Origin: an uncultured virus (IMG/VR IMGVR_UViG_3300025168_000061)
Taxonomy: Duplodnaviria > Heunggongvirae > Uroviricota > Caudoviricetes
Virus record (IMG/VR): IMGVR_UViG_3300025168_000061
Strand: one strand, 5' to 3'
Length of the DNA: 64,000 bases
This document shows positions 3,388 through 63,050 of the stretch, piece after piece (the stretch's first letter is position 1; the number at the start of each line of letters is the position of its first letter). The position numbers and the translations under genes were made by a program. The notes beneath the pieces were generated by a model. The model searched no databases. It saw nothing but the letters and a program-made list of their open reading frames with translations, and was not told the origin of the DNA.

Positions 3388-3388
3388 A

Positions 3389-3715: not shown

Positions 3716-3743
3716 AACATTGTTGTTTTTTATGTTTTGGGTT

Positions 3744-3772
3744 AATATAATAAAAATATTTCAGTAAGCAAA
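3744..3772 (-). promoter_or_regulatory. TTTG-N19-TATATT promoter upstream of groES
   Basis: Matches the recurring motif. Confidence 0.65.
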
Positions 3773-6030: not shown

Positions 6031-6287
6031 TCCCAGTCCTCCGGTTTTTTAAGTTTAGTTGGAGATTCAAAATCTCCTCTGCTATTTCGTATCTTAGAAC
6101 CTGATTTTTTAATTTCATAAACATTACCTCGAAGTGTTATTTTACCCCCCTGTTGGAGCATCTTTCGAAAGCGTTGTTCTTCCTTTTCAGTGAATTCTTT
6201 TGATATTTCTATCATTTCATCCTTTTCTAATAACTTGCCATTTAAATAAATGGTATGTTCTTTTCTGATTGACTGTTTACTTAACAT
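6027..6287 (-). CDS. Basic hypothetical protein (86 aa) lying between the two polB halves
   Basis: Overlaps both neighbours (ATGTTAA and ATGA). Confidence 0.8.
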   Translation of the reverse strand: MLSKQSIRKEHTIYLNGKLLEKDEMIEISKEFTEKEEQRFRKMLQQGGKITLRGNVYEIKKSGSKIRNSRGDFESPTKLKKPEDWE

Positions 6288-11359: not shown

Positions 11360-12172
11360 TTATGATGAAGTATGTTCAGGCATTTTTGCTCTGATTTCAT
11401 CTACTAATCCCATTTCCATAGCCTGATCCGCACTTAACCACCAATCCTGTCTATCCCAGTTCTTTTTAATTTTTTGTTTTGATAAATTAGATCTGCTTGT
11501 AAAAATATCAAGGATTCTACCTTCAATTCTTTGAATGAACCTTACTTCATCTTCAATCTCAAATGTTTTACCTGAGGCTCCAAATGCTGCTCTGTGAATC
11601 ATTACCCATGCTTGTTGGCCTACCCATCTTACATCACCCGCTTGTAGTAAAACACCTGCCATTGAAGCAGCGTATCCTAAAGTACCTGTTGTTAAGTGGT
11701 GACCTTGATATCTTAAATCTTGTAAAAAATCAAACAATTCAAATCCATCTATAATACTTCCTCCTGGGGATGAAAAAATAATTTCAATTGCACATTTAGG
11801 ATCTAATCTATGCCATTCCGTTAATGTTTCCATACACATTTTAACTGAACCTGATGATACTTTATCATTAAATCTATATAAGTAATTTTTCTCATCCCTA
11901 GAATTTCTTATATCAATCATTTCTAGTTCATCTTTCAGTTCTAACTCTTTAAGTTGAAGAGTAATTTGACTTTGTTTTAAAGATATTTCTTCCTTTTGGA
12001 GAAGTATTTTGGTTTTAGCAATGTCTATTTTTTGTTTTATTGCTTGGTTGCCTAGAATTTTAGATTCTGTTTTGATTTTATCAGCTTCTGCTTCTAATTT
12101 ACTTATTTGAGCTTGCTTAAGTTGATTATTTAGTGGGTTCTCTTGGGGGGTATCTTCTTTCTCTTCACTCAT
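11360..12172 (-). CDS. clpP: ClpP-family serine protease with an N-terminal coiled-coil extension
   Basis: SSPGGS, AASMAG (Ser), MIHR (His), DRQDWWLSA (Asp), MGLVDEI. Confidence 0.88.
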   Translation of the reverse strand: MSEEKEDTPQENPLNNQLKQAQISKLEAEADKIKTESKILGNQAIKQKIDIAKTKILLQKEEISLKQSQITLQLKELELKDELEMIDIRNSRDEKNYLYRFNDKVSSGSVKMCMETLTEWHRLDPKCAIEIIFSSPGGSIIDGFELFDFLQDLRYQGHHLTTGTLGYAASMAGVLLQAGDVRWVGQQAWVMIHRAAFGASGKTFEIEDEVRFIQRIEGRILDIFTSRSNLSKQKIKKNWDRQDWWLSADQAMEMGLVDEIRAKMPEHTSS

Positions 12173-12178
12173 ATATTA

Positions 12179-12313
12179 TTATTTTGATAATTGTATTATT
12201 TTATTTCTAAGTTCATCAATCATTTCTTGAACCTCATCTGGTTCCATTGTAATAGCACAACACGTTCCTACATGCTCTGATATTTCATCTAATAGTTCTA
12301 AAGCTTCCTTCAT
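12179..12313 (-). CDS. Small hypothetical protein (44 aa, MKEALELLDEISEHVGTCCAITMEPDEVQEMIDELRNKIIQLSK), absent from the ORF track
   Basis: TAATG overlap with the queE stop; fills the gap to clpP. Confidence 0.75.
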   Translation of the reverse strand: MKEALELLDEISEHVGTCCAITMEPDEVQEMIDELRNKIIQLSK

Positions 12314-13083
12314 TACACACCCCTTTCAGTATCAAATGCAATTATATGATCTCGCCCTGTCATATTATAACCATGTTCAGCACACATTTCAAATACTAGG
12401 GGATACATTTCAATTAGAGTTTCTCTAGTATCTCCAGCAGGCATTATATAAGTTTTGTCTTTTGGGATTTCCATTTTAATTCTAAAGTCTTCAATTTCCT
12501 TTAGGTTTTCATCCGTACCATCCCAAACTGGTTTATAATGATAATCTGTATGGTAATCAAGGGTTTGTCTTATTTTTTCATAATTAAGTCTAAACTTATT
12601 ATGTTGTTTAATCATTCTTTCGTCTGCCACTTTTCCTTGAGGCGTAACAGCACCAAGTACGGGTACAGAATTACTAAACTTAGGACTGAGAGAGATAAGA
12701 GAAAGAGGATAGTCAGTATTAAGGAAATGACTTCCTTCGGTTTCAATTGTAATGAGAATATTTCTTTCATAAGCAAAATGGGTTAGCTCATTTACTAATG
12801 CTGGGTGCATAGTTGGTGAACCCCCTGTTAACATCATTTCTTTAATATGAGGATTTTCATCATATATTTTAATAATATCATTAAATGAGAATGTTCCTTT
12901 TTCAGGATGAATACTAGTGTAAAATGAATCACACCATCCACCTTCGCCAAAGAAACAACGATGAGTACATCCAGTGGTTCTTACTGCTATTGTAGGTCTT
13001 CCAAACCTAGAGCCTTCTGATTGGACACATCTATATAATTCTAATATTGGTAAGGTTTTGTTGTAATCTTCTATTCGTTTCAT
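12313..13083 (-). CDS. queE: 7-carboxy-7-deazaguanine synthase (radical SAM)
   Basis: VQSEG, RTTGCTHRC...WCDS, LTGGSP, IETEG, SLSPK. Confidence 0.93.
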   Translation of the reverse strand: MKRIEDYNKTLPILELYRCVQSEGSRFGRPTIAVRTTGCTHRCFFGEGGWCDSFYTSIHPEKGTFSFNDIIKIYDENPHIKEMMLTGGSPTMHPALVNELTHFAYERNILITIETEGSHFLNTDYPLSLISLSPKFSNSVPVLGAVTPQGKVADERMIKQHNKFRLNYEKIRQTLDYHTDYHYKPVWDGTDENLKEIEDFRIKMEIPKDKTYIMPAGDTRETLIEMYPLVFEMCAEHGYNMTGRDHIIAFDTERGV

Positions 13084-13098
13084 AACTGTTTTTAATTT

Positions 13099-13176
13099 TG
13101 GTGGAGGTACTCAGGATCGAACTGAGACGTCTTCTGCGTGCAAGGCAGATGTTTTAGCCATTTAAACTATACCCCC
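13099..13176 (-). tRNA. tRNA-Ala(UGC)
   Basis: Acceptor stem GGGGGTA/TACCTCC with G3:U70, D stem GTTT/AAAC, anticodon arm TCTGC-CTTGCAC-GCAGA, T arm CTCAG-TTCGATC-CTGAG, encoded CCA. Confidence 0.95.
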
Positions 13177-13202
13177 ATGTTTAATAATAAATATTAATAG
13201 TA

Positions 13203-13670
13203 TTAGTCTTCACAATAGTAGGCTGCATTTTTTCCATGTTCCATAAACTTCACTTTAGTAACCCTAACTCGCCCATCTGTTTCCTCAAGTACGAATGGGT
13301 TTAGTTTATTGAAAATATACTCAGCAAATTTTTCTGCACCCGTTGCTTCAATAACTCTCAATTGTATAACACCTAAATCATTCATTGTTTTCCAACCTCC
13401 CATTCCTGGGTCGTCTTCAGCTACTATAACTGTGTGGTCAAACATATAGTCCATCCATTCTTTTGGTTGTTTATCTTCAATTAGGGTTTTAGCTCTTTTC
13501 ATTCCTCCAAAATCCCATACCCAATTTCTATCATCTAATTCGCCTTCAAAGTAAACTTTAAATGATATACCATATCCATGTAAAAACCTACAGTGTGTGT
13601 TTTCTGCTTTCCATTGACGAAACACTGTACTAAAACCGTCAAATACTTTACTTGATTGAAACTTTCCCAT
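13203..13670 (-). CDS. queD: 6-carboxy-5,6,7,8-tetrahydropterin synthase
   Basis: HCRFLHGY, WVWDFG, FDHT, GAEKFAE, EHGKN. Confidence 0.93.
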   Translation of the reverse strand: MGKFQSSKVFDGFSTVFRQWKAENTHCRFLHGYGISFKVYFEGELDDRNWVWDFGGMKRAKTLIEDKQPKEWMDYMFDHTVIVAEDDPGMGGWKTMNDLGVIQLRVIEATGAEKFAEYIFNKLNPFVLEETDGRVRVTKVKFMEHGKNAAYYCED

Positions 13671-13921
13671 TATACTAATTCTTCATAAATTCCTACTACT
13701 TCACTTAAAACCAAAACCGATGCTGCTATTGGTATACTATAAAATAATAACCCATAACCCGCTATCCTAATTCCAGATTTAATAAAACTAATTCTTTGGT
13801 GTTCTTTAGGATCAGGTAATTTATGTCCATCAATATGGATAGCACCTTTTTTTACTGTTGTTTTGTTTTTTATAACATCAAGAATTTCACCTTGAACTTT
13901 ATTCTTTGGTTTATACGCCAT
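13670..13921 (-). CDS. Small membrane protein
   Basis: Hydrophobic C-terminal half; coupled to the queD start. Confidence 0.7.
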   Translation of the reverse strand: MAYKPKNKVQGEILDVIKNKTTVKKGAIHIDGHKLPDPKEHQRISFIKSGIRIAGYGLLFYSIPIAASVLVLSEVVGIYEELV

Positions 13922-13931
13922 AATTTTAATT

Positions 13932-14777
13932 TTAATGTTCTGCTAAAACTTGTTCTACGTGTGCCTTAGCTACTTTATATTCTACAGGTCCTTTTTCATT
14001 TGCATAACTTACGGGATCAGGTTTTCCTAATTTAATAAATGCTTCTATTCTCTCTACTGATGAAGCGGATTTGTAATCTGAATACCATTTTCCTCCTCCT
14101 GTATCTGACCAACTATGGGGGATAAAAATTGGTTTATAACTTGTGTTTGTTCTTTTATAAACTTCATCAAAATCTAGTCCTAAACATTCACAACATGATT
14201 CTCCATCTTTTAAGATATCAAACTTATCTCCATTTAAATATGGTGTATAAATTTTTACTTTATCTCCTTCCCAATTTCCTTCTAAGAATGCATTGTAATC
14301 AGCATCTCTAAATTCTTGTCTACAATCAGGATAAATTTCATGATCACCTGCATGAATTCCCATTGCTATTTTAACTTCATCTCCGGTTTCAGTTGCAATT
14401 GATAGTGCTACTGCTTGGATAATTGATGAAAATATTTTATTTCTGTTAGGAACTACTGTTGCCTTCATATTATCATTCTCATAATGACCCTCAGGCACTT
14501 CATCTCCACCTTCTACTAAAGCTGAGTTTAGTAAGGTAGATAAACCGTCTAATTTGATTACTTGGTATGTTATATTATGTTTAATATAGGGATTTTTAGT
14601 TTTTTTACCTTTATCATTTAAGTAATCTACTAATTGTTGTGCTCTTTCTAGTTCAACACTGTGTTTTTGCCCATAATCAAAACTTAAACACGTTACCTTA
14701 TAACCATTAGCTAATAGGTGGAGTAATACTGTACTACTATCCATTCCGCCACTTAAACTTAATACTGCTCTTTTCAT
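13932..14777 (-). CDS. queC: 7-cyano-7-deazaguanine (preQ0) synthase
   Basis: SGGMDS, FDYGQKH..E, VPNRN, YPDCR.EF. Confidence 0.95.
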   Translation of the reverse strand: MKRAVLSLSGGMDSSTVLLHLLANGYKVTCLSFDYGQKHSVELERAQQLVDYLNDKGKKTKNPYIKHNITYQVIKLDGLSTLLNSALVEGGDEVPEGHYENDNMKATVVPNRNKIFSSIIQAVALSIATETGDEVKIAMGIHAGDHEIYPDCRQEFRDADYNAFLEGNWEGDKVKIYTPYLNGDKFDILKDGESCCECLGLDFDEVYKRTNTSYKPIFIPHSWSDTGGGKWYSDYKSASSVERIEAFIKLGKPDPVSYANEKGPVEYKVAKAHVEQVLAEH

Positions 14778-50493: not shown

Positions 50494-52167
50494 TTATACA
50501 GAAGCTAATCCGCTAACAAATACTCTTCCATAAAATTCTGGTCTAATCATCTTCTTAGCGTAACGAGTTAATAGACCTTTTCTTGGTGTGAAAGTGTCTG
50601 GATCGTATACTAATGGAGTCATAATCAATGGAATGTAAGGTGCAAATACCGCTCCTGTTTCTAGGAATTGGTTACCTCTATATCCCATAAGGATTGTTCC
50701 TTCAGTCATATATGGATTCTTGTAGATATCATATCTACTGTTCATCTGTCCCATTTTCTGGATACCGAATGCAAATTTACCTTTTGAAGCATCACCATCT
50801 GAGTTTGAAGCAAATCCTGGGATTGATTCAATGATAGTTGCTACTGAAGGAGATATCACACAGAAATTAGCACCACCTCTAAGAGTTTTCTGGTGAATTT
50901 TGTTAGATACTTTTTGCATTTTAGTTCCCAATGTTTGGAACCACTGTCCTTGTGTATTGAAGAAATTCAAATCATCATACCCTGTTCGGGCAGCATTCAA
51001 ACTGTCGTTGTTTTTAGCACTCCAGTATTCATCAGCAGCTGATGCATCTTGGATTAACATATCAAGAATTTCTAAATCGATTTCCATTGAAATGTATTCA
51101 CTCATAATAGATGTTAATTCTGCTTCAGCATCTAGTGCTTGGTAAGCATTTAAATCTTGAGCAAATTCTGGTGTCCATTGTGCTTTTAACTTTCTAGTTT
51201 TAGCAACAATTGCTTCAGATTTCATTTTAACATCGATAGATGGAATTGCTAACGCATCAGCAGCAGTAGATTCAGCATTTGGTCTACCTGCACCTGCAGC
51301 ATCTTCAAAATCACCTCTTTCGTTATCAGTTGGTTGATAGTTGTAAAATACAACGTTGTCTGTAGCTGTGTTTGGAACAGCAAGATCATTAGCTGAACCT
51401 GACATTATAAATGTAATATTAGTTCCACTAACACTTGTATATTGTGGTCTTAATCTATCAATTGATGCTTGGAAAGCCCAATCAACAGTTGAAGAAGAGA
51501 TAGGGAAAAATGCTCTTGCACCTTTGTAATCTGGTCTGTCTAAGTTAGCACCATCTACTGTTACAGTAACATAATCTCCATATGAAGAGGATAAATCCGA
51601 ATCATAATCTAAATCTGCCCAAGTAGCAGTAGCTACGGTTGTTGCAATTGATTTAGAGAATTGGTTGATTGAATATCCAAATCTTCCGGCACCATATAAA
51701 CCATCAGTTGGATTTGCTCCACCTGCAGGGTTAGTATTACCATACATAGAAGCAGGGCTTGAATAAACATCTCCAGCAGGGCCAAAGTTTACTTCTTTGT
51801 CTTGACCATATTGGAAATCTAAGAAAAATACAAGACCTGAAGGTAAGTTCATTGGTTGAACCGAAACAAATTCTTTTGCTGCGATTTGTCCAAATACCTT
51901 TCTTACCATTGGTAAAGCTACACCTGCCCACTGAGAACCTTGTCCTGCAGTAAAGTTAGCACCACCTTGGTTAGTTGATGATTGCTCAACAACTAATTGT
52001 TTTGCTTGGTTTTCTAGAATTAAAGACATATTGTTCTTGTGAACTTCGCTGTCCATTCCTTCTAGAAGTCCTGTTTTTTCCCACTTTGACGCTAGTCTAG
52101 CTGCGTCACTCTGCATGTTTTTCCAACCTTTTGCAGAGCTTTCTAATAGAGAATTTAATTGACTCAT
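50494..52167 (-). CDS. Major capsid protein (gp23-like)
   Basis: LENQ, VSVQPM..PSGL.F, AKTRKLKA.WT.E.AQDL, APYIPL, F.P..G..TRY. Confidence 0.97.
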   Translation of the reverse strand: MSQLNSLLESSAKGWKNMQSDAARLASKWEKTGLLEGMDSEVHKNNMSLILENQAKQLVVEQSSTNQGGANFTAGQGSQWAGVALPMVRKVFGQIAAKEFVSVQPMNLPSGLVFFLDFQYGQDKEVNFGPAGDVYSSPASMYGNTNPAGGANPTDGLYGAGRFGYSINQFSKSIATTVATATWADLDYDSDLSSSYGDYVTVTVDGANLDRPDYKGARAFFPISSSTVDWAFQASIDRLRPQYTSVSGTNITFIMSGSANDLAVPNTATDNVVFYNYQPTDNERGDFEDAAGAGRPNAESTAADALAIPSIDVKMKSEAIVAKTRKLKAQWTPEFAQDLNAYQALDAEAELTSIMSEYISMEIDLEILDMLIQDASAADEYWSAKNNDSLNAARTGYDDLNFFNTQGQWFQTLGTKMQKVSNKIHQKTLRGGANFCVISPSVATIIESIPGFASNSDGDASKGKFAFGIQKMGQMNSRYDIYKNPYMTEGTILMGYRGNQFLETGAVFAPYIPLIMTPLVYDPDTFTPRKGLLTRYAKKMIRPEFYGRVFVSGLASV

Positions 52168-52193: not shown

Positions 52194-53231
52194 TTATTTT
52201 AAACCTGCCAATTTTTGGAACCTTTCCACCATAGGGTCAGTTGCAATAATTGGGTTTTTAGTTTTAAAGTTTCCTGTTGCCTTTGAGGCAGAACCTAAAG
52301 ATTCTCTAATTGGTGCTTTTTTTCTTTTTAATCCTTCGTTTAAAGTTTCAAATACCAATTTAGTTTCTTTTACTGTAGTTGCTTTATCAAATGCACCTAA
52401 TACTTTAACTTTTTCATTTTCAGTTAAGCTTTTAGCTTTGAAAATTTTATTAGTGTATAACAATTTAGCGTTTAACAGGTTAACTTCATTTATTTCATGT
52501 TTAAGAGTATTAACAGTAGAGTTAGATTTTTTAAGATCTTCCTTTAATCTTGATACTTCTTTGTAAACTTCAGCTAATGAATTATCTTCACTAACTTCTA
52601 CAGTTTCATCATCTACAATGTCGATGTCGATTTCTTCATCATCATCAGAATCATCAGACATAACTTCCATGTCTTCTTCTTCTTCTTCAAATTCATCACC
52701 GGCTTCTAATTCACCTGATGAAACCATATCTGCGATAACATCTTCAATGAATCCTTTAAGGTCTTCATCAGTCATATCTTCAAGATCAAGATCTGAGGAT
52801 TTTTCATCCTCCATATCTTCTTTCTCGTCTTCCATACCGTCTTCATAGCCTTCTTCTTCGGCGTCTGTTCTAGCATCTTCTGTGACTGCTTCTTCCTCTT
52901 CTAATTCACTTTCGATTTCATTTAATAGTTCGTCTAGATTGATTTCTTCTTCGATATCAGATTCAGCAAGGTCTTTTCCATACTTCATTTTTTCAGTACG
53001 TTTAGTTTCTTTACTTTCTCCTCCATCTCCACGATCATCACCTTCTTCTTTTTCTTTTTTAGACATTTCATCAATGTCTTCTTTTTCCATCTCCTCTAAT
53101 TTTGCAGATAACATGGATTTAAGTTGAGGTGTGAAAGCTTCTTCTAGAGCTGCTTTTGCATTTGCGATAGCTGTTTCTTTAACGGCTTTAGCGTCAGCAA
53201 TAGCTTCTTTGAGAATATCTCGTTTTGCCAT
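52194..53231 (-). CDS. Prohead scaffold protein (gp22-like)
   Basis: Highly acidic, coiled-coil, many L/I-x-E sites; between protease and capsid genes. Confidence 0.85.
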   Translation of the reverse strand: MAKRDILKEAIADAKAVKETAIANAKAALEEAFTPQLKSMLSAKLEEMEKEDIDEMSKKEKEEGDDRGDGGESKETKRTEKMKYGKDLAESDIEEEINLDELLNEIESELEEEEAVTEDARTDAEEEGYEDGMEDEKEDMEDEKSSDLDLEDMTDEDLKGFIEDVIADMVSSGELEAGDEFEEEEEDMEVMSDDSDDDEEIDIDIVDDETVEVSEDNSLAEVYKEVSRLKEDLKKSNSTVNTLKHEINEVNLLNAKLLYTNKIFKAKSLTENEKVKVLGAFDKATTVKETKLVFETLNEGLKRKKAPIRESLGSASKATGNFKTKNPIIATDPMVERFQKLAGLK

Positions 53232-53371: not shown

Positions 53372-53974
53372 TTAAAACATTGGGCAGTTTCCATTAGCAC
53401 ATAATATTTCTGTTACTATGCTATTTGCTTTTGAGTATGGGTTTATAATATTTTCTTTACCTTCTTTAATTGTTTTCATGTATGAGCCTGGGTTAGAAGG
53501 TGTTGAAACAAAGTCCCAACATAATAATTCAAAGTCGTCTTGTACTTCCATTACACCACCACTTTCTTCTAATGAACCCATTCCACGAGAGGATACACCG
53601 CATGTAATACCACTTTCGATTAGTGCTTTAAGTATGTTTCCAGATGGTGTAGGTAGTATTTCTATTTTACCTATTACATTATCTCCATCCCACCACATAT
53701 CTTTTATGTTGTGGGAGACGTTTTTTAAGTTAATTACTTGAGACTCTGGGTGGTCTAATTCTCCCATTGCTCTGTTTTCTTTAACTAGTTCTTTGTACTT
53801 ATCGATTTCTCGGTTCCATAAATCTTTAGAGTAATATCTTCCATTACCGTTTTTTATTTCAGCTGTAGCTAAAATACCTTCAACGATTGGATTACCTCTT
53901 TCAGACATTTTACCTTCTGATAATAAACCTGGGGTAGGTTTAAATAACTGTGTTTCAATAAGTACTTGTTTCAT
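53372..53974 (-). CDS. Prohead protease (gp21-like)
   Basis: NGNGRYY, GELDHP, VSH, TPSG.I, GVSSRGMGS, DFVSTPS. Confidence 0.96.
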   Translation of the reverse strand: MKQVLIETQLFKPTPGLLSEGKMSERGNPIVEGILATAEIKNGNGRYYSKDLWNREIDKYKELVKENRAMGELDHPESQVINLKNVSHNIKDMWWDGDNVIGKIEILPTPSGNILKALIESGITCGVSSRGMGSLEESGGVMEVQDDFELLCWDFVSTPSNPGSYMKTIKEGKENIINPYSKANSIVTEILCANGNCPMF

Positions 53975-53975
53975 A

Positions 53976-55481
53976 TTAATAATCTCCCATTTTAAGTCCT
54001 AAATGTTGTTCTATAAATTCTTTTATCTCTTCTATAGACATTCCTGCTTCATATGCCATTTCAACTGCATCTGCTACTGCTTCCATATGTTCAGGTGCCC
54101 CGTCCATTCTATCTTCTTCTAATTCAATAGAATCAACAGTTGCCTTAAATTCTCCAGCACTATCATTTGCGGCATCCATATTTGTTTTTAATTCTTCAGC
54201 ATCCTCTTTAGGACCCTCATTCAAATTAAAATAATCCATGTAGTTTTTATGAGAAAATCCTGTACCTGATACAATGCCACCTGCAATTGCTATTTCATTA
54301 ACTAGTTTTTTAGATTTATCTTCATCATGGGCTACAATAAACTCACCAACTTTTGCACCTGATATTACTTTTTTTATTTGAGCTAAATCTGCATCTTTAA
54401 AATCCATCCCAAATTCTCCTCTATTGGTGAATTTAATACCTTTATCTTTTAAAGCCTGTCTTACTATTTTAGTATCTTTTTTAGCTTTACTACTTGTTCC
54501 TTTTCTTATGATAGCGCCATTAAATTTTGCTTCTTTTATTAATTTTCTTCTTCTACGTTTGTGTTCTTTTAAACCTCTCCCTCCAGGTGCATTATCTGCA
54601 GGGGAGTATTTAGAACGTGTTTTTTCGATTTCAGAATCTATGAATTGAAGTACTTGAACATCTGTTGGGTTTTCAATTTTATCAAAAAACCTTACAACAT
54701 TTTCATAAAAGTCATCATTGTATCCATCTATAAAATCATCTGCAAAATCTTGTCCTTTTTTAGAAGATATATATGCTCTAATCTTATCATAGTCTAAATC
54801 TAATACATCGGGTCCGAATTCCGTATTAGCATCATTCATATAAGTGTATTCACCTTCTTTTATTAATTTTCTTCTTCTACGTTTGTGTTCTTTTAGTTTA
54901 CCATAACCACTTGATTTGTATTCACCTTTTGGTTCTACTGGTTTGCCTAAACTTGGAGCTTCGTCAGTGTAACCTAAATCTTTTTCTCCGAATTGACCAT
55001 TTTTAGTATAAAAAATAGGGTCTTTAGCTAAGTTTTTATAAACAATCTCTAGTAATTCTTGGTCTGTTTTCCCTTCGTTTTTAGGATCTTTGTATTCACA
55101 ATAGTATCCCATTTGGATTTGACCAAAAATCATGTTGTTTGGGTCTTTTTTATCTAATGTGTCATATCCATTAGCTTGGTCTTCTTCAACCTCTTTAGAT
55201 ACTTTCTTTTCTTCAGCTTTTACCTCTGCTTCTGCTATAAAGTTTGCAAATGCATTTTCGTATCCTTCTTTCTTTCTTTCTAGTGGGTTTCCTACCATAG
55301 GAATACCAACAAAGTTTTCGGAGATTATATTCTTTTGCTTAAGAATTTTAGATGCTTCATTATATGTAGCCCCTTGTCTTATTAAATTAGGGAATAGTTT
55401 TTTTGCTTCTTTTAAGAAAACACCTTTATGGCCCTTGTCTTCCTTAATTAATCTGTATTGTTCAGTTAATGTTTTTTTCAT
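53976..55481 (-). CDS. Modular internal head (core) protein, candidate polyprotein
   Basis: Between portal and protease; many L/I-x-E sites; duplicated LKEHKRRRRKLIKE. Confidence 0.8.
   Translation of the reverse strand: MKKTLTEQYRLIKEDKGHKGVFLKEAKKLFPNLIRQGATYNEASKILKQKNIISENFVGIPMVGNPLERKKEGYENAFANFIAEAEVKAEEKKVSKEVEEDQANGYDTLDKKDPNNMIFGQIQMGYYCEYKDPKNEGKTDQELLEIVYKNLAKDPIFYTKNGQFGEKDLGYTDEAPSLGKPVEPKGEYKSSGYGKLKEHKRRRRKLIKEGEYTYMNDANTEFGPDVLDLDYDKIRAYISSKKGQDFADDFIDGYNDDFYENVVRFFDKIENPTDVQVLQFIDSEIEKTRSKYSPADNAPGGRGLKEHKRRRRKLIKEAKFNGAIIRKGTSSKAKKDTKIVRQALKDKGIKFTNRGEFGMDFKDADLAQIKKVISGAKVGEFIVAHDEDKSKKLVNEIAIAGGIVSGTGFSHKNYMDYFNLNEGPKEDAEELKTNMDAANDSAGEFKATVDSIELEEDRMDGAPEHMEAVADAVEMAYEAGMSIEEIKEFIEQHLGLKMGDY
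54530..54895. repeat. Exact 42-bp direct repeat (54530-54571 and 54854-54895)
   Basis: cttcttttattaattttcttcttctacgtttgtgttctttta twice, 324 bp apart and in frame. Confidence 0.95.
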
Positions 55482-56464
55482 TCTCCTTGTTTTAATAATT
55501 TTGTTATGTCATCCAATAATTCATTTACCATATCCGTTGAATATACTATTGCATATGAACCTGGGTTTTCATTATAATATTGGGCTGTTTCGTTTTTTGC
55601 GTTTGATAAAAGTGGTGATATAGAATTTATTTTTTCTTCTACATCCGTAAATATGTTAATTCTGTTTTGTTGGAAATCACTGTATTCAGTTAATTCCTCT
55701 TTTTCAAATAATTGTTTTACTATAGTACCTGCTCCTTTAATTTTTTTAGGTACAGGTTTAAAACCTAATTTATAATAATAAATATCCTTAGCTCCGGTTG
55801 AAGATTTATTTTTGTCAAATGCTCTTGGAGTTAGATAACCCATACCTTCACCTTCTTCAACTTCTTCTTCTTTTATAGAAAGTTCTTCTTCTAATGCAGA
55901 ACCAAAAATAGAATTAAAAGCCTTACTTAATTTAACAAGTTTGTTTTTTAGGTTTGAATAATCAAATTCTTCAGGTGCCATACTATAAAGAATATTACCC
56001 TGGGGTTTATTATGGTGTTTTGATAATTCTACTTCTAATCTTTCTATGTTATTTATAAGGTTATTAAGTGTCTTAAGGGTTAGATTTAAGGGTCTCTTAA
56101 CATTATTAACATCTAATTGTGTCCATTGCTCAGATTCTTTTACCATTCTGATCCTGTCATAGGCTTCAGGGTAATTCTTTCTAACATGGGTTCTGTATTG
56201 GTTAAATAGTTTTTTTACTTGGTCTGTAATTGAATCAATTGTTGAATCAGATTCTGCTTCACCTTCACTTTCTAATGTCCTTAGTAGTTTATTTAACTCA
56301 TTAAAAGTTTTATAAACAGTATCAAATGCGCCTACATTTATTATATCCCATGAAATCGCCCCAGTTACAGGGTTAATATCAGTTACTGTGGATTTGGTTC
56401 CGTCTTTGACTTTTATATCACCAACTTCAAATTCACTATTTTCTTTTAATTTAAATTTATACAT
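55478..56464 (-). CDS. Putative head core protein
   Basis: MYKFKLKE start, GYLTPRAF motif, position in the head module. Confidence 0.75.
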   Translation of the reverse strand: MYKFKLKENSEFEVGDIKVKDGTKSTVTDINPVTGAISWDIINVGAFDTVYKTFNELNKLLRTLESEGEAESDSTIDSITDQVKKLFNQYRTHVRKNYPEAYDRIRMVKESEQWTQLDVNNVKRPLNLTLKTLNNLINNIERLEVELSKHHNKPQGNILYSMAPEEFDYSNLKNKLVKLSKAFNSIFGSALEEELSIKEEEVEEGEGMGYLTPRAFDKNKSSTGAKDIYYYKLGFKPVPKKIKGAGTIVKQLFEKEELTEYSDFQQNRINIFTDVEEKINSISPLLSNAKNETAQYYNENPGSYAIVYSTDMVNELLDDITKLLKQGE

Positions 56465-57314
56465 GGGTAGTTTCTAATTCTTCAATTAAATCGTAATATT
56501 GTAACAAATTGATAAGATCGTTATCTTTAATTTTAGACGTTTTACCTATAACAGGAAGTATTTTAATTACTTCGTTTATTTTGATCTGTGTTGTTTTGTC
56601 TGGGATTGTGTTTGATAGCTCTGTTAGTGAGGTTTTAATTTCACCTACTTTAGTATTATAAAATTCCTTTAACTTTGGGGTATTGTCTATTGAGGTAATT
56701 AATTCCTTTAAAATTTCTTTTTGACTTTCAAGTAAATCCTCATACTTGTCATTGAACTTGTTTAATAAAACCCTAGTTGTTAAAATTCTTAAATCTTTAT
56801 CATATGATTTAAATTCTTCAAGCACTGTTTCCTTAACTTTATCTTTTTTAACTGAGGCAGCTGATAGGTGTTCTAAGATAGTTATTTTATTATCTATAAT
56901 TTGTTGTGTGTTTGATGGGTTTTCTTGGGAAAAACTTTCTATTAAAGTATAAAAAGCAGCTTGTATTTTATAGTGTGGTAAATTGTGGGAGAAAAATTTA
57001 GTAACATCGTAATGTTTTTTAATCTCACTAATTAAATTATATTTTTGTCTTTTAAGTGCTCGTCTATTAAAATTCTTAGAAGATTGCAACAAAGTTGATA
57101 ACGTTACATCAGCTTGGGTTTCAGTAATGCTAGTTTTCTTAAATAGAGTTTCATAGAGTTTATATTCTCTCCCTAATTCTGTTTTTACAAAATATTCTTT
57201 TAGAATACCACTTGCCTTAGAATCAGTACCATTTAATGTATCAGTAGTTATTTGTCTAACTAGTAGCTCAAAAAGAACCCCTGCGTTTTTGTACTTTGAA
57301 TGCTTAATGTTCAT
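56457..57314 (-). CDS. Head-module hypothetical protein
   Basis: KHSKYKNAGVLFELL start; follows the portal; TATTTATA at 57334-57341. Confidence 0.8.
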   Translation of the reverse strand: MNIKHSKYKNAGVLFELLVRQITTDTLNGTDSKASGILKEYFVKTELGREYKLYETLFKKTSITETQADVTLSTLLQSSKNFNRRALKRQKYNLISEIKKHYDVTKFFSHNLPHYKIQAAFYTLIESFSQENPSNTQQIIDNKITILEHLSAASVKKDKVKETVLEEFKSYDKDLRILTTRVLLNKFNDKYEDLLESQKEILKELITSIDNTPKLKEFYNTKVGEIKTSLTELSNTIPDKTTQIKINEVIKILPVIGKTSKIKDNDLINLLQYYDLIEELETTHV

Positions 57315-57353: not shown

Positions 57354-59246
57354 TTACTCTTTCAACTGTTTTTCATCAAGTAGGTCATTTTTCTTTTCAT
57401 CTTGCTCAAATACTAATTGCTTTTCAGTACGATGTGGTGAAGGTACTTTATCTAGCATATTTAAAGTTTCTAAAGCCAATGGAGATCTACCTTTATATGA
57501 TGGGTTAAGTCTACCATTATCATTATAATCTTTTTTTATTCCATCTTTACCTATTGGATCCTTCCCAAAAGCACTGTTTTGTGTATGTGATTTAGAATGT
57601 TTTTCTTTTGGTCTTCCTAATGGGGTTTTCTCATCATACCCATCTGGAACATTACTTGGGTCTGATTGTGTTCTACCTACTCCATATAAAGATGCTAAAT
57701 CATGTGGTGTACCATAAGATTTACCTGTTTCTTGTGGATCATTACCTTCAGCTTCTATTTGAGTTAATCTAAAGTTACGTTTAGTATCTTGCTTAATTAA
57801 ATCTCTATATTCATCGTATTGATCTTCACTAAAGTGGAATATGTTTTCATAAATCCAATCAGATGGAATCAATTTACTATCTAACATTGATTGTGCCAAT
57901 GTGATCTTATCGGTCATTAATGCTACTCTTTCTTGATCGTATATGATTGATGGAGTAGTCAAAGACAAATCAAAGTTTGTTAAATTTTCATCTTTATAAC
58001 CCAAAGTATACAAATGAACTAATGCTATCTTCTGTAGTTCAGATACCATAATTCTTTGAATTCTTTCTATCGTTCTAGCAAATCTAATATCTTGTGCCGC
58101 TAGTGTAGCTTTACCTTCTGTATCTGCATCATACCCCATAAACGCTTTAGGGACTTTAAGTGCCGCAAATAACTTATCTCTTAAATATTCTACATCAGCT
58201 ATACCATCGTATTGTAATCCGGGGGTAGTATCTATTTTTGTTGCTGTGTCATTTCCTCTAACAGGTATGTAAAAATCTTCAAGCATGTTTTGCATGTTGT
58301 ATTTAAGATTATACTCTCCGGTTTGTGGATCTGTAAAAGGTGTACGTTTCATTTTAGAAATAGTCTTCTGCATAAAGTTTTCTACTTCAGCAGGAGGAAT
58401 GTTACCTACGTTCATGTAAAATATGCGCTTTTCAGGCGCTCTAACTATTCTATGTATCAACATTGCGTCTTCCATTAGAACGTACTGTTTAAACAGTTTA
58501 CGTGCTGGTTCTATATATGATCTGCCATATGGAAGGAAATTAGTATCAGTTAATAATCTAAAATGAGCCATTTCATAATTATCAAATAGAATGGCATTAT
58601 CACTTACATCATTTGAGTTAGGAACATTATAGTAACCATAACCCCCTGTTGATAAACCATTAGGGTCAAATTGGAATTGGATATCTGCAGGTTTATCAGG
58701 ATCTCCACCTTCTATTCTTTCAATATGAAATGCATTATAAGGTATAACATTATAAACACCAAATTTTTCTGCTATTTCTAATTTAAGGAAAAAATCCCCA
58801 TATTTACACATATTTCTAACCCAAGGCCATAGGTTAAATTCTATGTTTAATACATCATAAAATAAATTGTATAATATTTTTTGGACATTTTCATCTGAAC
58901 TTCTAATTTGAAGTACTTCACCCATGTCATTTTTAAGTGTAGACTCATCTGCTATAATATCTAAGGCAGAAGCTATAATAGCATCTGTATCCATAGAATC
59001 ATATTCTGAATATAGTTGGGGTCTTAATGTTTGGTAATTGTAATTACTTTGAGAGCCGTATAGTGATGTAGGTGATGTTGAGTATAATCTATTGAACCTA
59101 TCTACTAGTGAGTTGTTTTCATACTCACCGGATTGTTGGATTTTATTTATATCAACAACTTTTAATTGGTCTCCACCTTGATTACGTATTATAACATCTG
59201 TTGAGAATAACCTTTTTAACCTTGAAAATAATCTTGTATCTGCCAT
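57354..59246 (-). CDS. Portal protein (gp20-like)
   Basis: LMEDAMLIHRI.RAPEKRIFY..VGNIP, MLEDFYIP.RG, ALKVPK, DIRF; TATTTATA at 59260-59267. Confidence 0.96.
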   Translation of the reverse strand: MADTRLFSRLKRLFSTDVIIRNQGGDQLKVVDINKIQQSGEYENNSLVDRFNRLYSTSPTSLYGSQSNYNYQTLRPQLYSEYDSMDTDAIIASALDIIADESTLKNDMGEVLQIRSSDENVQKILYNLFYDVLNIEFNLWPWVRNMCKYGDFFLKLEIAEKFGVYNVIPYNAFHIERIEGGDPDKPADIQFQFDPNGLSTGGYGYYNVPNSNDVSDNAILFDNYEMAHFRLLTDTNFLPYGRSYIEPARKLFKQYVLMEDAMLIHRIVRAPEKRIFYMNVGNIPPAEVENFMQKTISKMKRTPFTDPQTGEYNLKYNMQNMLEDFYIPVRGNDTATKIDTTPGLQYDGIADVEYLRDKLFAALKVPKAFMGYDADTEGKATLAAQDIRFARTIERIQRIMVSELQKIALVHLYTLGYKDENLTNFDLSLTTPSIIYDQERVALMTDKITLAQSMLDSKLIPSDWIYENIFHFSEDQYDEYRDLIKQDTKRNFRLTQIEAEGNDPQETGKSYGTPHDLASLYGVGRTQSDPSNVPDGYDEKTPLGRPKEKHSKSHTQNSAFGKDPIGKDGIKKDYNDNGRLNPSYKGRSPLALETLNMLDKVPSPHRTEKQLVFEQDEKKNDLLDEKQLKE

Positions 59247-59267: not shown

Positions 59268-60842
59268 TTATAGAAGCCAACTAATGTCTTCTTCTCCACC
59301 TGAATATGGGTTATCTATTTTGAATGGGTTTTGGTTTGTTGTTGGAGAATATGCTCCTATATGTTTGGGTTTGTTTGATGTTATGTTATTTAACATATTT
59401 TTTGTTAAATCCATCCCATGTTGCTTATATTTAAATGCTGTATCTCTCATGTATTGCCCCATAGAGAAACTTAATACTAAATCATCGTTATAACCGGATT
59501 GGGCTTCTGGTTTTCCGTTTCTCCAAATAAAAGTTCTCATTTCTTCTAATAACCTTTTACTTTGGAATGTAACACCTTTATCAGATAGTGATTCTTGAAA
59601 TTTACTTATCACCATAGGCCTTGTCCTTGAAGACATTGTAAATCCAGGTGTCATTTTTGATGTATCCATATATTGTTCAAAATACGAATCAGCTCTCACT
59701 TCTCCACTCTTAGGTGAATAGTAAAGGTTAGTATATCCTCTGTCTATAACTGTTTGTATTGTTGCCCAACCTATACTATTATTTTCTATTACTAATAAAG
59801 CATTATTGTATTCCGTGGCTATACCTACTAGTAAATGTCCATATTCTTTTGTGCCTAATTGTCCTCTATATTCTGCTACTTGAACATTGTTTTCCACATC
59901 AATGATATGGAACGCAGAATGATCTTTCCCATCTCCACGAGCGACATCAGCAACCACCATATAATCTCTGGAATAGTCACATGGTTCCCAAACCCATAAA
60001 TTGCGATCAGTTCCCCTACGTTCCAGAGGTTCTTTAATGTAGGTTTTTTCATAAAATTCTATATATTCAGGATAAAATACTACATCACCCGATGTGCTAA
60101 AATCACAGTCACATTCTTGTGCCGCCATTCTAGGGTCGCCTAGTAATTCATCTTGTCTTTTTCTCCATGTTTCATCTCTTTCGGGATGAACAAACCATGG
60201 AAGTTTAATTGGAAGGAAATCGTTTTCTTTATTTTCTGCTCTTACCCATGTTTGATGGAACCAATTCCCGGTACCATAAGGAGTAGATAAAGCAATACAA
60301 CCACCACCTGTAGCTAGGGTTTGTTGAGCTGATGCCCATATTTCACCTATATTTTCAATGAAGGCAGCCTCATCGATTAGTAGTAAAGATACTGCTTCGG
60401 ATCTACCTGCATCACTTGATGCGGATGTTGCTTTAATTTGAGATCCGTTAATTAATCGTAATGTAAGTTTGTTGTTTTCAGGGGCATCTATTTTAAGCCA
60501 TGAAGGTAAATTTTCATACATGAATTTTACCTTGGTGACCATATTTTTGGCTGTCTCCTGCTTAGTTGCTATACAAAGTATATTTTTATCCTTATGAAAT
60601 AACATTAACCATAGAGAATAACCGGCACCCAGAGTAGATATACCTAATTGTCTAGATTTTAAAACAATGGAATAGGGGTTTTCTTGAAATAAGGATAATA
60701 CTTTTTCCTGGAAGGGGTATAATGCAAATTGAATTCTACCTCTTTGGGGGTGTTGAATAAAACAGTATTTTTTCATAAAATGTACAGGGTCGCTAGCACA
60801 TTTTAAGTATTCTTGTTTTATAACTTTTTTTATATCACTCAT
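59268..60842 (-). CDS. terL: Terminase large subunit (gp17-like)
   Basis: LYPFQ, KSRQLGIST, LLIDEAAF, LSTPYG, ADVARG, DDLV. Confidence 0.97.
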   Translation of the reverse strand: MSDIKKVIKQEYLKCASDPVHFMKKYCFIQHPQRGRIQFALYPFQEKVLSLFQENPYSIVLKSRQLGISTLGAGYSLWLMLFHKDKNILCIATKQETAKNMVTKVKFMYENLPSWLKIDAPENNKLTLRLINGSQIKATSASSDAGRSEAVSLLLIDEAAFIENIGEIWASAQQTLATGGGCIALSTPYGTGNWFHQTWVRAENKENDFLPIKLPWFVHPERDETWRKRQDELLGDPRMAAQECDCDFSTSGDVVFYPEYIEFYEKTYIKEPLERRGTDRNLWVWEPCDYSRDYMVVADVARGDGKDHSAFHIIDVENNVQVAEYRGQLGTKEYGHLLVGIATEYNNALLVIENNSIGWATIQTVIDRGYTNLYYSPKSGEVRADSYFEQYMDTSKMTPGFTMSSRTRPMVISKFQESLSDKGVTFQSKRLLEEMRTFIWRNGKPEAQSGYNDDLVLSFSMGQYMRDTAFKYKQHGMDLTKNMLNNITSNKPKHIGAYSPTTNQNPFKIDNPYSGGEEDISWLL

Positions 60843-61301
60843 TTAGGTTAAAGATATTAGTGTAATTATAGGTAATAAAAGGGATCCTATAAAACCAACT
60901 ATTTTTAATCTTTTTTGTTTTTTTATTTCTTTTTCTTGTGTTTTAATAACTTTGTCTTTAAGCTCAATTTCTTTTTTATTGTTACTTAATATTTCTTCAA
61001 AATTATCAATCATAGACTGTTGATTGTCTGATTTGATAGAAAGCTTAATAAATATATCTTTTTGCATTTCTATTATCTCTTGACATAAACTATCTTTTTC
61101 TTTATAAGCAAGGAGGAGACTATCTGCTATTTCATACTCTAAAAGATCGATTAATATAATTCGAGCATCATCTAAATGCATTAAAATTAAAGTATCACCT
61201 TTAGTGTTAATTATTTCCCTTACCTCTCCTCTTGAGATAGTCTGAGATGTTATTTGTGACATCGTCGCTATCCATATTGTTAATAATATTAGGTATTTCA
61301 T
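60843..61301 (-). CDS. Signal peptide + coiled coil + C-terminal TM protein, spanin-like
   Basis: Topology; overlaps the upstream membrane gene by 95 nt in another frame. Confidence 0.55.
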   Translation of the reverse strand: MKYLILLTIWIATMSQITSQTISRGEVREIINTKGDTLILMHLDDARIILIDLLEYEIADSLLLAYKEKDSLCQEIIEMQKDIFIKLSIKSDNQQSMIDNFEEILSNNKKEIELKDKVIKTQEKEIKKQKRLKIVGFIGSLLLPIITLISLT

Positions 61302-61587
61302 TTCGTTTTTTTTCTAAAGCTGCTAGTTTAGTTTCTGTTTCTTTTAAGATAACTTCAGTACTATCTATAGCATATAGTATAATGTTGATTTCGTTTTGTA
61401 GTTTACTATTAGCTAAACTGAGACTATCGTTGGATAGTCTTAGTTTTTTGTTTTGTTTTTTTAATAGATTTATTTCATCCTTATAAGTATCAATTGGAGT
61501 TGATGGTTTGGATAATAGGCTTAAAATTAATGCAACTGCTAATATTATTATAAAAACTAATTGTATGTTATTAAAGAGCTTTTTCAA
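61207..61587 (-). CDS. N-terminal TM + coiled-coil protein, i-spanin-like
   Basis: Single TM segment followed by heptad repeats. Confidence 0.55.
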   Translation of the reverse strand: MKKLFNNIQLVFIIILAVALILSLLSKPSTPIDTYKDEINLLKKQNKKLRLSNDSLSLANSKLQNEINIILYAIDSTEVILKETETKLAALEKKRNEIPNIINNMDSDDVTNNISDYLKRRGKGNN

Positions 61588-62497
61588 GTTGTTTCTTTTC
61601 TTTAGTCATTTTCTTTAATTGCTCCACGTACTTTTCCATATCATTGGTAGCATTTGCTTTTTTTGCTCTTTTATAACTACCTGCTATGTCCTTCATTTTT
61701 TTAGTTAGCTTTTGAAGTTTATTTGAAGTTGTAGCTATTGAATCTTTTTTCTTTAATTCTGCTGATGTTGGTTCTTCTTCTTCTCTTAAATCTCCTTCAG
61801 CAAGTCTTAATTGATCACTACTATATTCTACTGTTTCATCTCCTATTTCTGGGAAATCAACATTTGCATTAAATTTGGTTCCATCTAGTTTTTCAACTCT
61901 ATAAGCCATTTTGTCAGACGCAAATAATTGTCTTACACCAACTACTCTTAGTTTATCACCTCCTCTTGTTAGGGTTACTATATCATCTAATTGGATTTCT
62001 TCTGATAATACAGATTTAATTTCTGCTTTGATTGCTTCTTTTAATTTAGATCTTTTATTTTTTCCAGCATCTGTCATTTCTTTCTTTTCTTCTCTAATAG
62101 AAATATCATCTAGTGCATCCATTGTATCTCCAAAACCTGGCATATCATACTTTGTATCTGATTTTCGTTGTTCTAAAGCTGCCATAATTGCATACACAGC
62201 ATCTTGTTCGCTATAATCATATCGTTTAGCAGTTCTTGCAATGTAACGATTTACATCTCTAAATACTTCAGGGTTTAATGATTCGTTTAGTCCTCTTTCT
62301 CTATCCATCATTCTTGAGACTTCGGCTGCTTGTAAAGCGTCTATGGCTCTACCCATTAAGTCTTTCTTTCTCTTATCAACATAGATATTTTGCATGTCTC
62401 TAAGAACTCTAAATGCTTCATCTGTAGTCATTAGACCTTCTGATAGAAGTGATTTTATTTTGCTTTTGATTGCTTCTTTGAGCGTGGATTTTTTCAT
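61571..62497 (-). CDS. Modular internal head protein candidate (probable start ATG 62497)
   Basis: MKKSTLKEAIKSKIKSLLSE is repeated internally as KRSKLKEAIKAEIKSVLSE; TATTTATT variant at 62512-62519. Confidence 0.75.
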   Translation of the reverse strand: MKKSTLKEAIKSKIKSLLSEGLMTTDEAFRVLRDMQNIYVDKRKKDLMGRAIDALQAAEVSRMMDRERGLNESLNPEVFRDVNRYIARTAKRYDYSEQDAVYAIMAALEQRKSDTKYDMPGFGDTMDALDDISIREEKKEMTDAGKNKRSKLKEAIKAEIKSVLSEEIQLDDIVTLTRGGDKLRVVGVRQLFASDKMAYRVEKLDGTKFNANVDFPEIGDETVEYSSDQLRLAEGDLREEEEPTSAELKKKDSIATTSNKLQKLTKKMKDIAGSYKRAKKANATNDMEKYVEQLKKMTKEKKQLEKAL

Positions 62498-62519: not shown

Positions 62520-63050
62520 TTAAACACTTAGTGCCTCTCGCACTAACTTAACACGCTCCTCATTACTGCCCTTAATTTCTACCAGATTTTTAATTCTATG
62601 GTTGTACTTATTAATAAAGCTTTTAATTGATGAATCAACTAAATCCCTATATTCCGCATCTGTTTCTCTAACCCCATTGTTTTCTATTTCAACTCCCTCA
62701 GGGGAAACATAGAATATATAATCATAATCTGATATTAGATTAGATGCATGTTGTGTAAAGTCATCAGCATGAATATAAGATATTGTTTTAGCTAAATTTG
62801 TAAATGCTATAACATCTATAATAGTTCTATCCGTTATAACGTTTTCATTCATTAATTCAGCTGCTCTTTCAGCTAAAAACACTGTTTGACCCTTAATGGT
62901 AGAATCTGTGTTTAATGGAATACCTAAATCTCTTAAGTATTTGGATCGTTCTGTTTTGAACTCATATTCTTTGAACTCAGGGAGTTCCTTTAGTGTATTT
63001 ACAAGTGTTGTTTTACCAACACTCATTGTACCACAAAAACCTATCTTCAT
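62520..63050 (-). CDS. P-loop nucleotide kinase (AAA_28 / NadR-like)
   Basis: GTMSVGKTT, ITDRT.ID, YDYIFY, NGVRE. Confidence 0.85.
   Translation of the reverse strand: MKIGFCGTMSVGKTTLVNTLKELPEFKEYEFKTERSKYLRDLGIPLNTDSTIKGQTVFLAERAAELMNENVITDRTIIDVIAFTNLAKTISYIHADDFTQHASNLISDYDYIFYVSPEGVEIENNGVRETDAEYRDLVDSSIKSFINKYNHRIKNLVEIKGSNEERVKLVREALSV

Follow-up and report, generated by a model that had tools for sequence, protein, structure and literature searches.

The P0001 gene and its repeated leader

The 64,000-nucleotide (nt) stretch of DNA analyzed here (IMG/VR record IMGVR_UViG_3300025168_000061, an uncultured virus of the class Caudoviricetes; hereinafter the window) encodes on its minus strand, at positions 61571-62497, a protein of 308 amino acids (aa), P0001, that contains two copies of its own N-terminal leader. 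The open reading frame (ORF) starts with the ATG at 62497 and ends with the stop codon at 61571-61573; an in-frame GTG is present upstream, at 62527, and the homologs P0002-P0006 share the start methionine of P0001. Leader copy 1 (aa 1-20, 62438-62497) recurs as copy 2 (aa 147-166, 62000-62059), with identity in 14 of 20 amino acids and 43 of 60 nucleotides. A profile made from 42 distinct homologous leaders and scanned against the six-frame translation of the whole window detects copy 1 with 34.8 bits and copy 2 with 30.7 bits, and given that the runner-up scores 4.5 bits, the repeat is far beyond chance. Thus, the mid-protein repeat of the N-terminus described in a first-pass annotation of this DNA is borne out, and the DNA repeat that it placed at 62000-62040 and 62438-62479 lies inside the two measured copies.

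The same annotation described P0001 as a series of segments separated by short motifs. All five of these triplets are present (LSE at residues 18-20, LNE at 70-72, IRE at 134-136, LAE at 232-234 and LRE at 237-239), and LKE occurs within both leader copies. The leader is an amphipathic helix with a net charge of +4; copy 1, which ends with LSE, is of the type characteristic of one allele lineage of the family described below (A-type). It is followed by module B (62282-62437, aa 21-72, net charge 0), a helical segment with predicted helices at residues 25-39 and 42-71 and LNE at its end, and by module C (62090-62281, aa 73-136, net charge -4), which consists of a highly conserved helix-loop-helix and a flexible stretch that extends to IRE. 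The next ten residues (62060-62089, aa 137-146) are a remnant of a distinct, “type-2” lysine-rich tail. Leader copy 2, also with LSE at the end, represents the start of a D-type allele, and the position of the former ATG reads AAT. Downstream are module D (61796-61999, aa 167-234, net charge -5), a small acidic five-strand beta module ending with LAE; a linker of five residues (61781-61795, aa 235-239) ending with LRE; and the lysine-rich tail proper (61574-61780, aa 240-308, net charge +8), for which a helical hairpin is predicted. Modules B and C and the tail are found in 72, 184 and 150, respectively, of 264 relatives.

Origin of the fused allele

The DNA of leader copy 2 is nearly identical to the 5' end of stand-alone D-type genes in loci L001 and L002, and the homology starts one codon after the ATG of these genes. 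The ten codons that precede copy 2 match the start of the type-2 tail, which is complete in L051, P0013, P0018 and P0037. In a three-way DNA alignment, the window follows L051 up to an A-rich run and L002 beyond it. Judging from these alignments, the P0001 gene is the product of one unequal crossover in the A-rich tract that linked an allele breaking off about 10 codons into the tail (the remnant is the left side of the crossover) to a second allele that is whole but for the start codon; such an exchange between two co-infecting phages with different alleles would account for the gene. The differences between the leader copies accordingly reflect descent from two diverged allele lineages rather than decay of an old internal duplication. 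P0002, from another contig, has the same junction and one more module, of 68 aa, inserted at the LRE seam, so that the fusion is not an assembly artefact of the window record. Another relative, P0066, is 95% identical to P0001 over the aligned part, which covers 30% of P0001. A metagenome scan of 18 loci yielded no further contig across the fusion junction; it did yield the parent-type allele L051.

Sorting of 264 proteins into architecture classes, by BLASTP against the five parts of P0001, shows how the two halves are distributed. The commonest stand-alone form is leader-B-C-tail, with 49 proteins; leader-D-tail accounts for 31 proteins and leader-D with another tail for 12, whereas leader-B-C-D-tail is limited to P0001 and P0002 (2 of 264). 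By this classification, each half of P0001 is thus frequent as a gene of its own, in contrast to the rare fused form. A further 82 proteins contain module C alone within an otherwise different sequence. The first-pass annotation considered P0001 to be a fusion of several small leader-bearing genes and an older instance of such fusion, and held that the idea would fail if the segments never occurred independently. They do occur so, both halves being common as stand-alone genes, and a fusion it is: the second half is a whole stand-alone gene type and the first half matches the commonest one. The number and the age of the proposed events require correction. The fusion joined two alleles of one locus by a single crossover, with one gene and no array in all 13 loci examined, and the rarity of the fused form together with the origin of the leader copies from two diverged lineages lends no support to an older event. 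The P0001 gene is a clean, datable example of chain growth, in which a single crossover brought two alleles together.

A second, independent kind of internal leader relic was observed in L051 (1241-2128), L057 (1629-2459), P0008 and P0019. Here, two B modules flank a leader from which the first five residues are missing and which follows an LNE seam directly.

The family and its hypervariable locus

A word-indexed search identifies 506 relatives of P0001 at E values of 0.01 or lower among 7237 candidates, and an exhaustive search of cluster representatives identifies 228 at 0.001 or lower. Every relative with a labelled source is metagenomic, and many are marine. Family members start with a leader and finish with a lysine-rich tail of one of several types, with middle modules in between, so that the same leader precedes unrelated, fast-evolving sequences (e.g., B-C and D in the stand-alone classes above). 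Of the 50 proteins with module D, 42 have its start no more than 35 aa from the N-terminus. P0001 shows no match to Pfam or PHROGs. At the Pfam gathering score, nothing is detected in P0001 or in 22 relatives, including nine longer than 700 aa; two of the 22 give weak, sub-threshold matches (DUF3782 and MLKL_N). Comparison of 34 members with PHROGs at E values up to 1 gives scattered weak matches, of which those to a “virion structural protein” family are the commonest (seen in 7 of the 34 members, with 0.0076 as the best E value).

Analysis of the genomic context reveals the order kinase-like gene, family gene, terminase, portal in 16 of 44 IMG/VR loci; a 17th locus ends after the family gene. 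Exactly one family gene, of 168-246 aa, is present in each of the 13 loci examined, and across loci the length ranges from 168 to 386 aa next to a conserved terminase. For example, in L010 the terminase is 92% identical to that of the window, and the family gene encodes 193 aa (compared with 308) with 45% identity over 179 aa. As judged by such comparisons, the family gene evolves much faster than its neighbors and is the most variable stretch of the neighborhood, and the P0001 gene represents, in this window, one allele of a single-copy, hypervariable locus found in marine T4-like phages.

Module C has a wider distribution, in proteins from about 90 to about 1300 aa. In seven loci of a sister clade (L015, L021, L022, L028, L030, L031 and L033), it is found in a gene of 93-174 aa located directly upstream of the prohead protease gene, where it is flanked by LTE and by MDE or VNE. 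In the T4 record, this position is occupied by genes 67 and 68. In L021 and L030, two of these loci that span the site, the kinase-like and terminase genes adjoin directly. Module C is also present inside proteins of 259-1296 aa in 18 further loci, several of them a few kilobases upstream of the terminase gene.

Several features of these other module C proteins are worth recording. The sister-clade protease-adjacent gene has a different conserved N-terminal leader and a conserved Gly-Tyr-x-Thr-Pro-x-Ala-Phe motif, which is found also in a 328-aa gene of the window and in gp072 of Flavobacterium phage vB_FspM_immuto. The proteins of 259-1296 aa (L016-L044, 18 loci; P0140, P0150, P0176, P0198, P0245 and others) contain many modules separated by [LIVM]xE, where x is any residue, and their N-termini show four or more additional leader types, each with an [LIVM]xE end within about 10-20 residues. 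In phage immuto (L045, 3160-8903), such leader-bearing and hypermodular genes are located upstream of the terminase gene: gp076 and gp077 have a duplicated N-terminal leader in common, which contains two [LIVM]xE motifs, and the annotation of gp077 as “PduO” is open to doubt; the 841-aa gp079 is hypermodular and shares other modules with the large module C proteins; and gp080 begins with a leader resembling that of P0001.

Module boundaries often coincide with a protease-type motif

The triplets at the seams of P0001 conform to the pattern [LIVM]xE, and the family offers a way to assess their significance. Indels were collected from 6876 protein pairs sharing at least 60% identity over at least 30 aa, with proteins longer than 600 aa left out; insertions of at least 10 aa with well-aligned flanks were counted, giving 901 events that represent 93 distinct segments, or 75 without near-duplicates. 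[LIVM]xE lies exactly at both ends of 25 of the 75 segments and within 2 aa of both ends in 42. Random placement (200 trials) gives a mean of 1.3 (maximum 4) for exact coincidence and 2.9 (maximum 8) within 2 aa. Control motifs are far less frequent at these positions: the respective counts, out of 75, are 2 and 4 for [LIVM]xD, 0 and 0 for [LIVM]xK, 2 and 2 for [AGST]xE, 3 and 10 for E.[LIVM], and 9 and 10 for [KRDE]xE. With indel ends at [LIVM]xE so far above chance, the segments distinguished in the first-pass annotation are, on the strength of these alignments, real modules. This approach superseded a test based on the ends of BLAST matches, which was too noisy.

The motif is also recurrent at individual seams. 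It occupies leader residues 18-20 in 64 of 67 distinct leaders, precedes the lysine-rich tail in all 44 distinct contexts listed (by eye) and lies directly upstream of module C in 76 of 82 distinct contexts. Past module C, the first [LIVM]xE ends 14 aa on in 66 of 117 distinct contexts and 32 aa on in 32. Near the N-terminus, within residues 4-22, the motif is found in 242 of 278 proteins compared with 101 of 278 for a random internal stretch, a count that is inflated by relatedness. At the seams, position P3 (Leu, Ile, Val or Met) and position P1 (Glu) are constrained, and position P2 is free (N, R, S, K, T, D, A).

Predicted structure of P0001

AlphaFold2 (AF2) prediction for the whole of P0001 is poor, with a predicted local distance difference test score (pLDDT) of 56.9, and is confident only for the two helices of module C (about 83, aa 76-113) and the hairpin of the tail (about 88). 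The prediction for aa 147-308 is better (pLDDT 70.7) and includes the leader helix, a small five-strand beta module, a disordered seam and the hairpin. In the AF2 model of P0001, the six seam glutamates are at helix ends or in coil, and both leader-internal LKE motifs are in the middle of a helix. A Foldseek search against PDB and BFVD gives no match at E values of 0.001 or lower, and for module D there are only weak SH3-like rows. VIA-align retrieves generic helical hairpins only (Z 8-9.3, below the bar for helical folds), with no terminase among the 50 rows; sequence and profile searches of PDB reveal nothing meaningful for P0001; and for module C, the ESM Atlas returns unnamed viral clusters only, with scores of 0.75-0.78, below the bar.

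The head-gene neighborhood

All genes near P0001 are on the minus strand. The conserved upstream neighbor is an AAA_28-type kinase-like gene (62520-63050), the stop codon of which is 22 nt from the P0001 start. Two small ORFs (60843-61587), encoding predicted membrane and coiled-coil proteins, separate P0001 from the large terminase gene (59268-60842), which is the other conserved neighbor. Then follow a gp20-type portal gene (57354-59246; Pfam Portal_T4, 4.7e-69), three unassigned genes, the prohead protease gene (53372-53974; Peptidase_S77, Pfam 5.7e-31, PHROG 1.8e-60), a gene for an acidic scaffold-like protein (52194-53231) and a gp23-type capsid protein gene (50494-52167; Pfam Gp23, 9.7e-74). 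A T4-type head module, including a gp21-type (S77) protease, is therefore encoded in the window. The protease, presumably the processing enzyme, is 35% identical to T4 gp21 over 141 aa (E value 3e-22) and retains the columns of T4 His85 and Ser140, which we take to be the catalytic residues. The scaffold-like protein, with 21 [LIVM]xE sites, shows no Pfam or PHROG match and is presumed to be the core addressed by the leader. Elsewhere in the window there are tail, replication, chaperonin and 7-deazaguanine genes; by terminase, the nearest cultured phage is immuto (59%).

The first-pass annotation linked the leader to the scaffold-like protein through a shared LKEAI. DILKEAI is indeed found at the start of the latter; the leader profile, however, scores this protein at a non-significant 0.3 bits, and the link is rejected.

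Four head-core genes are among the seven genes of the window with the highest [LIVM]xE excess (z 5.9, 3.2, 2.4 and 2.0).

Some further features of this region were noted. The strongest excess in the window (18 sites compared with 6.2 expected, z 5.9) is found in a 285-aa gene just past the portal (56457-57314, minus strand), which phage immuto (gp073) and every related locus retain. A 501-aa protein encoded between the portal and protease genes (53976-55481, minus strand) contains 17 sites compared with 10.2 expected and a twice-repeated cassette (a short motif ending with LKE, an arginine run and LIKE); its last 40 aa recur, with 67.5% identity, at a different place in locus L002, and this is probably the “first polyprotein” implied by the description of P0001 as the second one. 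The two small ORFs between the P0001 gene and the terminase gene give way, in most relatives, to a gene with a beta-rich product of about 174 aa.

Comparison with T4 and other processed or modular systems

The leader-and-protease system of phage T4 is textbook knowledge, and the gp21 consensus is usually written Leu/Ile-x-Glu. In the T4 record, internal proteins II and III (IPII and IPIII) open with a 10-residue leader ending with IAE, and the motif is found as LTE at residue 65 of gp23, LRE at residue 10 of gp24 and LIE at residue 9 of gp21; these positions agree with the available passages of PMC9026906, PMC9958956 and PMC5694885. According to the available text of PMC9026906, IPIII needs no more than its first 10 residues to be targeted, processing is controlled by residues 8 and 10, an Asp in the last position of the T4 leader prevents processing, and LIE-9 fits the gp21 cleavage logo. 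The accessible portions of PMC5694885 state that the T4 protease and those of giant phages cut after Glu and that T4 leaders are 10-20 residues long; the P0001 leader, with 20 residues and LSE at its end, has this form and length. In the capsid propeptide of the phage group to which the window belongs, LLE-36 and (I/L)LE-52 are retained in all five capsid proteins compared.

The closest analogs of P0001 appear to be the T4 proteins IPI, IPII, IPIII and Alt, in which a short Met-Lys leader with a hydrophobic-x-Glu end precedes unrelated, fast-evolving proteins; the phage of the window also encodes a gp21-type protease. T-even internal proteins are described as diverse, with the targeting sequence alone conserved (PMC3012670, PMC9026906, available parts). 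Unlike these, P0001 has a leader of 20 residues with two copies of the motif, several modules on one chain that are joined at further cut motifs, acidic middle modules, a constant lysine-rich tail, and a single locus by the terminase.

A second parallel is provided by gp67 and gp68, small T4 prohead core proteins that are degraded by gp21 (PMC9958956, in the part available) and contain several [LIV]xE sites. In gp68, residues 1-75 include 3 Lys and Arg and 16 Asp and Glu, and residues 76-141 include 25 and 3, respectively, so that an acidic, cut-rich front and a basic rear are shared with the family. Module C occupies the same genomic position in the seven sister-clade loci, that is, in phages other than that of the window. 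The P0001 gene differs in being located upstream of the terminase gene, hypervariable and modular.

More distant likenesses are found in giant phages and in other modular proteins. In phiKZ, 201phi2-1 and SPN3US, a gp21-related protease cuts after the Glu of a three-residue motif, propeptides may hold several cut sites, and paralogs share N-terminal leaders; the motif there is A/S/G-x-Glu, and the propeptides are often longer than 100 residues (PMC5694885, PMC9026906, available passages). The giant-phage cut proteins have been identified by mass spectrometry, whereas the cleavage proposed for P0001 is predicted from sequence. Polyvalent proteins (Iyer et al. 2017, PMC5512222, as far as the accessible text goes) combine many domains in a chain that is thought to be delivered with the DNA and proteolytically separated; they have their own in-chain metallopeptidase and recognizable enzyme domains. 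P0001 and the 22 scanned relatives contain no Pfam domain at the gathering score, the presumed protease is a separate head-maturation enzyme, and assignment of P0001 to the polyvalent proteins is rejected. The T4-type genome shuffling described in PMC2839356 (available part) similarly involves insertion, deletion and replacement between close relatives, but there whole genes are shuffled with regulatory cassettes, whereas here modules are exchanged within one reading frame at protease-type seams. What is already known, judging from the accessible literature, is the T4 leader and protease system, the multiply cut propeptides of giant phages and the self-processed polyvalent proteins (PMC5512222). 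None of the titles and abstract openings listed by full-text searches describes protease-jointed modular chains in T4-like phages, the exchange of modules at the seams of a prohead protease in such phages, or this family, although an account of this kind could have been missed.

A hypothesis for the function of P0001

Taken together, these observations are best compatible with P0001 being a modular protein that is targeted to the capsid and processed by the protease, in the manner of the T4 leader-tagged internal proteins but with several modules, a reading to which we assign a probability of roughly 60%. P0001 probably enters the capsid and is cleaved into pieces inside it, given that its building blocks are swapped between phages exactly at a T4-type head-protease motif. 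The scheme would be as follows. P0001 would be made together with the packaging and head genes, and the leader would act like the T4 capsid-targeting sequence and guide the precursor into the prohead's scaffolding core. The S77 (gp21-type) protease would then cleave behind the Glu of [LIVM]-x-Glu, both where the leader ends and at every seam (Glu20, 72, 136, 166 and 234/239), freeing two helical modules, a small beta module, a short relic-leader peptide and the basic tail. These pieces may stay with the DNA and be ejected as cargo, or may be cleared like core proteins. Finally, modules could be inserted, deleted and swapped at the seams, without harm to the neighboring modules because every seam would be a cut site; the crossover described above would have left an internal leader bracketed by cut motifs. 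The first four of these steps we infer; the last, the swapping of modules, is drawn from the comparison of sequences.

Several observations weigh against this interpretation. P0001 contains 8 [LIVM]xE motifs compared with 6.8 +/- 2.2 in 1000 shuffles, so that the count by itself is at the chance level and the seam sites gain meaning only through comparison with relatives; in the family as a whole, the density of the motif is not raised (ratio 1.08). In the indel analysis, for 33 of the 75 segments at least one end lies more than 2 aa from the motif, and in the BLAST-match-end test the excess was modest (ends exactly at a site 7.0% compared with 2.3%, starts within 2 aa 16.3% compared with 11.5%). 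Glu precedes module C in 81 of 82 contexts and could belong to the fold of that module. The middle modules are acidic (isoelectric point 4.6), unlike classical basic internal proteins, and by eye the leaders of the family share with T4 leaders only a general form, namely, a Met-Lys start and a hydrophobic-x-Glu end. The P0001 gene lies upstream of the terminase gene, outside the portal-protease interval. An hhalign comparison with T4 gp67 and gp68 gives probabilities of 0.17-0.25%, that is, no profile similarity, and searches of 50,697 phage records with tblastn and megablast yield no match to the family in cultured phages. The cleavage, packaging and ejection or delivery of P0001 are themselves deductions.

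Some of these observations would also fit with P0001 being a modular cytoplasmic protein, involved in host take-over, anti-defence or regulation and neither packaged nor cut, in which the seams are conserved helix-end or linker motifs where recombinants stay folded. The lack of an overall motif excess, the near-invariant Glu before module C (which may be structural), the acidic middle modules and the location of the gene outside the portal-to-capsid block all speak for such a protein. A linker, however, need not constrain P3 and P1 and leave P2 free, which is the pattern of the T4 site; the leader has the form and length of T4-type propeptides (PMC5694885, available passages); module C is present also in a gene adjoining that for the protease; and motif excess is among the highest in the window's other head-core genes. 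We consider a cytoplasmic role rather unlikely. Similarly low odds apply to the possibility that P0001 is targeted and cut as proposed but serves as a scaffolding-core assembly helper like T4 gp67 and gp68, to be degraded and cleared with nothing delivered to the host. This explanation shares the mechanism of the one that we favor and differs solely in the fate of the pieces, and it can draw on the gp68-like layout (several [LIV]xE sites in an acidic N-terminal part, followed by a strongly basic C-terminal part) and on the gp67/68 position of module C in the sister clade. Against it, core helpers are conserved and the P0001 locus is the most variable of its neighborhood, modules of 50-70 aa without internal sites would persist as folded mini-proteins rather than small peptides, and the profile comparison with gp67 and gp68 is negative.

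The least probable explanation, in our assessment, is that P0001 is the small terminase subunit or another packaging accessory, with the hairpin tail responsible for oligomerization or terminase binding, the helical modules for DNA binding and the seams incidental. The gene is upstream of that for the large terminase with two small ORFs between, no small terminase is recognized anywhere in the window (61 ORFs scanned against PHROGs), which leaves no other candidate and also counts against capsid cargo, and the common forms of the family, with 180-200 aa, a helical composition, a confident C-terminal helical hairpin and a lysine-rich region, resemble such a subunit. No terminase family of Pfam or PHROGs is hit, even at E values up to 1, by any of 34 members scanned, and the hhalign probability for T4 gp16 is 0.23%. 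The locus is hypervariable (168-386 aa) beside a conserved large subunit, the gene is missing at the site in L021 and L030, where module C is instead found next to the protease gene, and this module recurs inside proteins of up to about 1300 aa.

Under the hypothesis of a capsid-targeted, processed P0001, a more speculative extension can be considered, which we regard as possible but doubtful. The cut motif of the head protease might double as a universal “splice seam”: with the protease separating the chain into pieces that do not depend on one another, alleles could be joined in frame at will and stay functional, and the capsid cargo of marine T4-like phages of Bacteroidota would evolve, within one reading frame, by a process similar to exon shuffling. 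The P0001 allele, in which an entire second allele and a leader that no longer serves a purpose are trapped between cut sites, would then be a natural snapshot of this process, and module C, with cut motifs on either side, might be a shared, excisable packaging adaptor rather than cargo.

Should P0001 indeed be a processed capsid protein, T4-style capsid loading would be extended, in abundant uncultured marine phages, to a cassette system with modules swapped at protease seams, which would explain a large block of the viral “dark matter” proteins that lack family assignment. It would also supply a simple sequence rule to predict proteins that travel in the head and the positions at which they are cut, and the leader and seam could be used as parts for loading foreign proteins into Bacteroidota phages, as has been done with T4.

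Other features of the window

Several genes far from P0001, all on the minus strand, merit a brief mention. A second, ClpP-like “head maturation protease” (11360-12172; phrog_94, 3.4e-46) is encoded far from the head module, amid genes of nucleotide metabolism and 7-deazaguanine synthesis. Genes for GroEL (1.2e-153), GroES and an Hsp20-type chaperone are found in a row at 1762-4203. The DNA polymerase is encoded in two ORFs about 250 nt apart (6281-8014 and 5071-6030), which correspond to the front and rear of one PHROG family. Genes for GTP cyclohydrolase and for QueE-, QueD- and QueC-like proteins (8561-9256 and 12313-14777) make up a 7-deazaguanine DNA modification set; phage immuto is cited in a paper on DNA modifications of this type (PMC10516641, available part).

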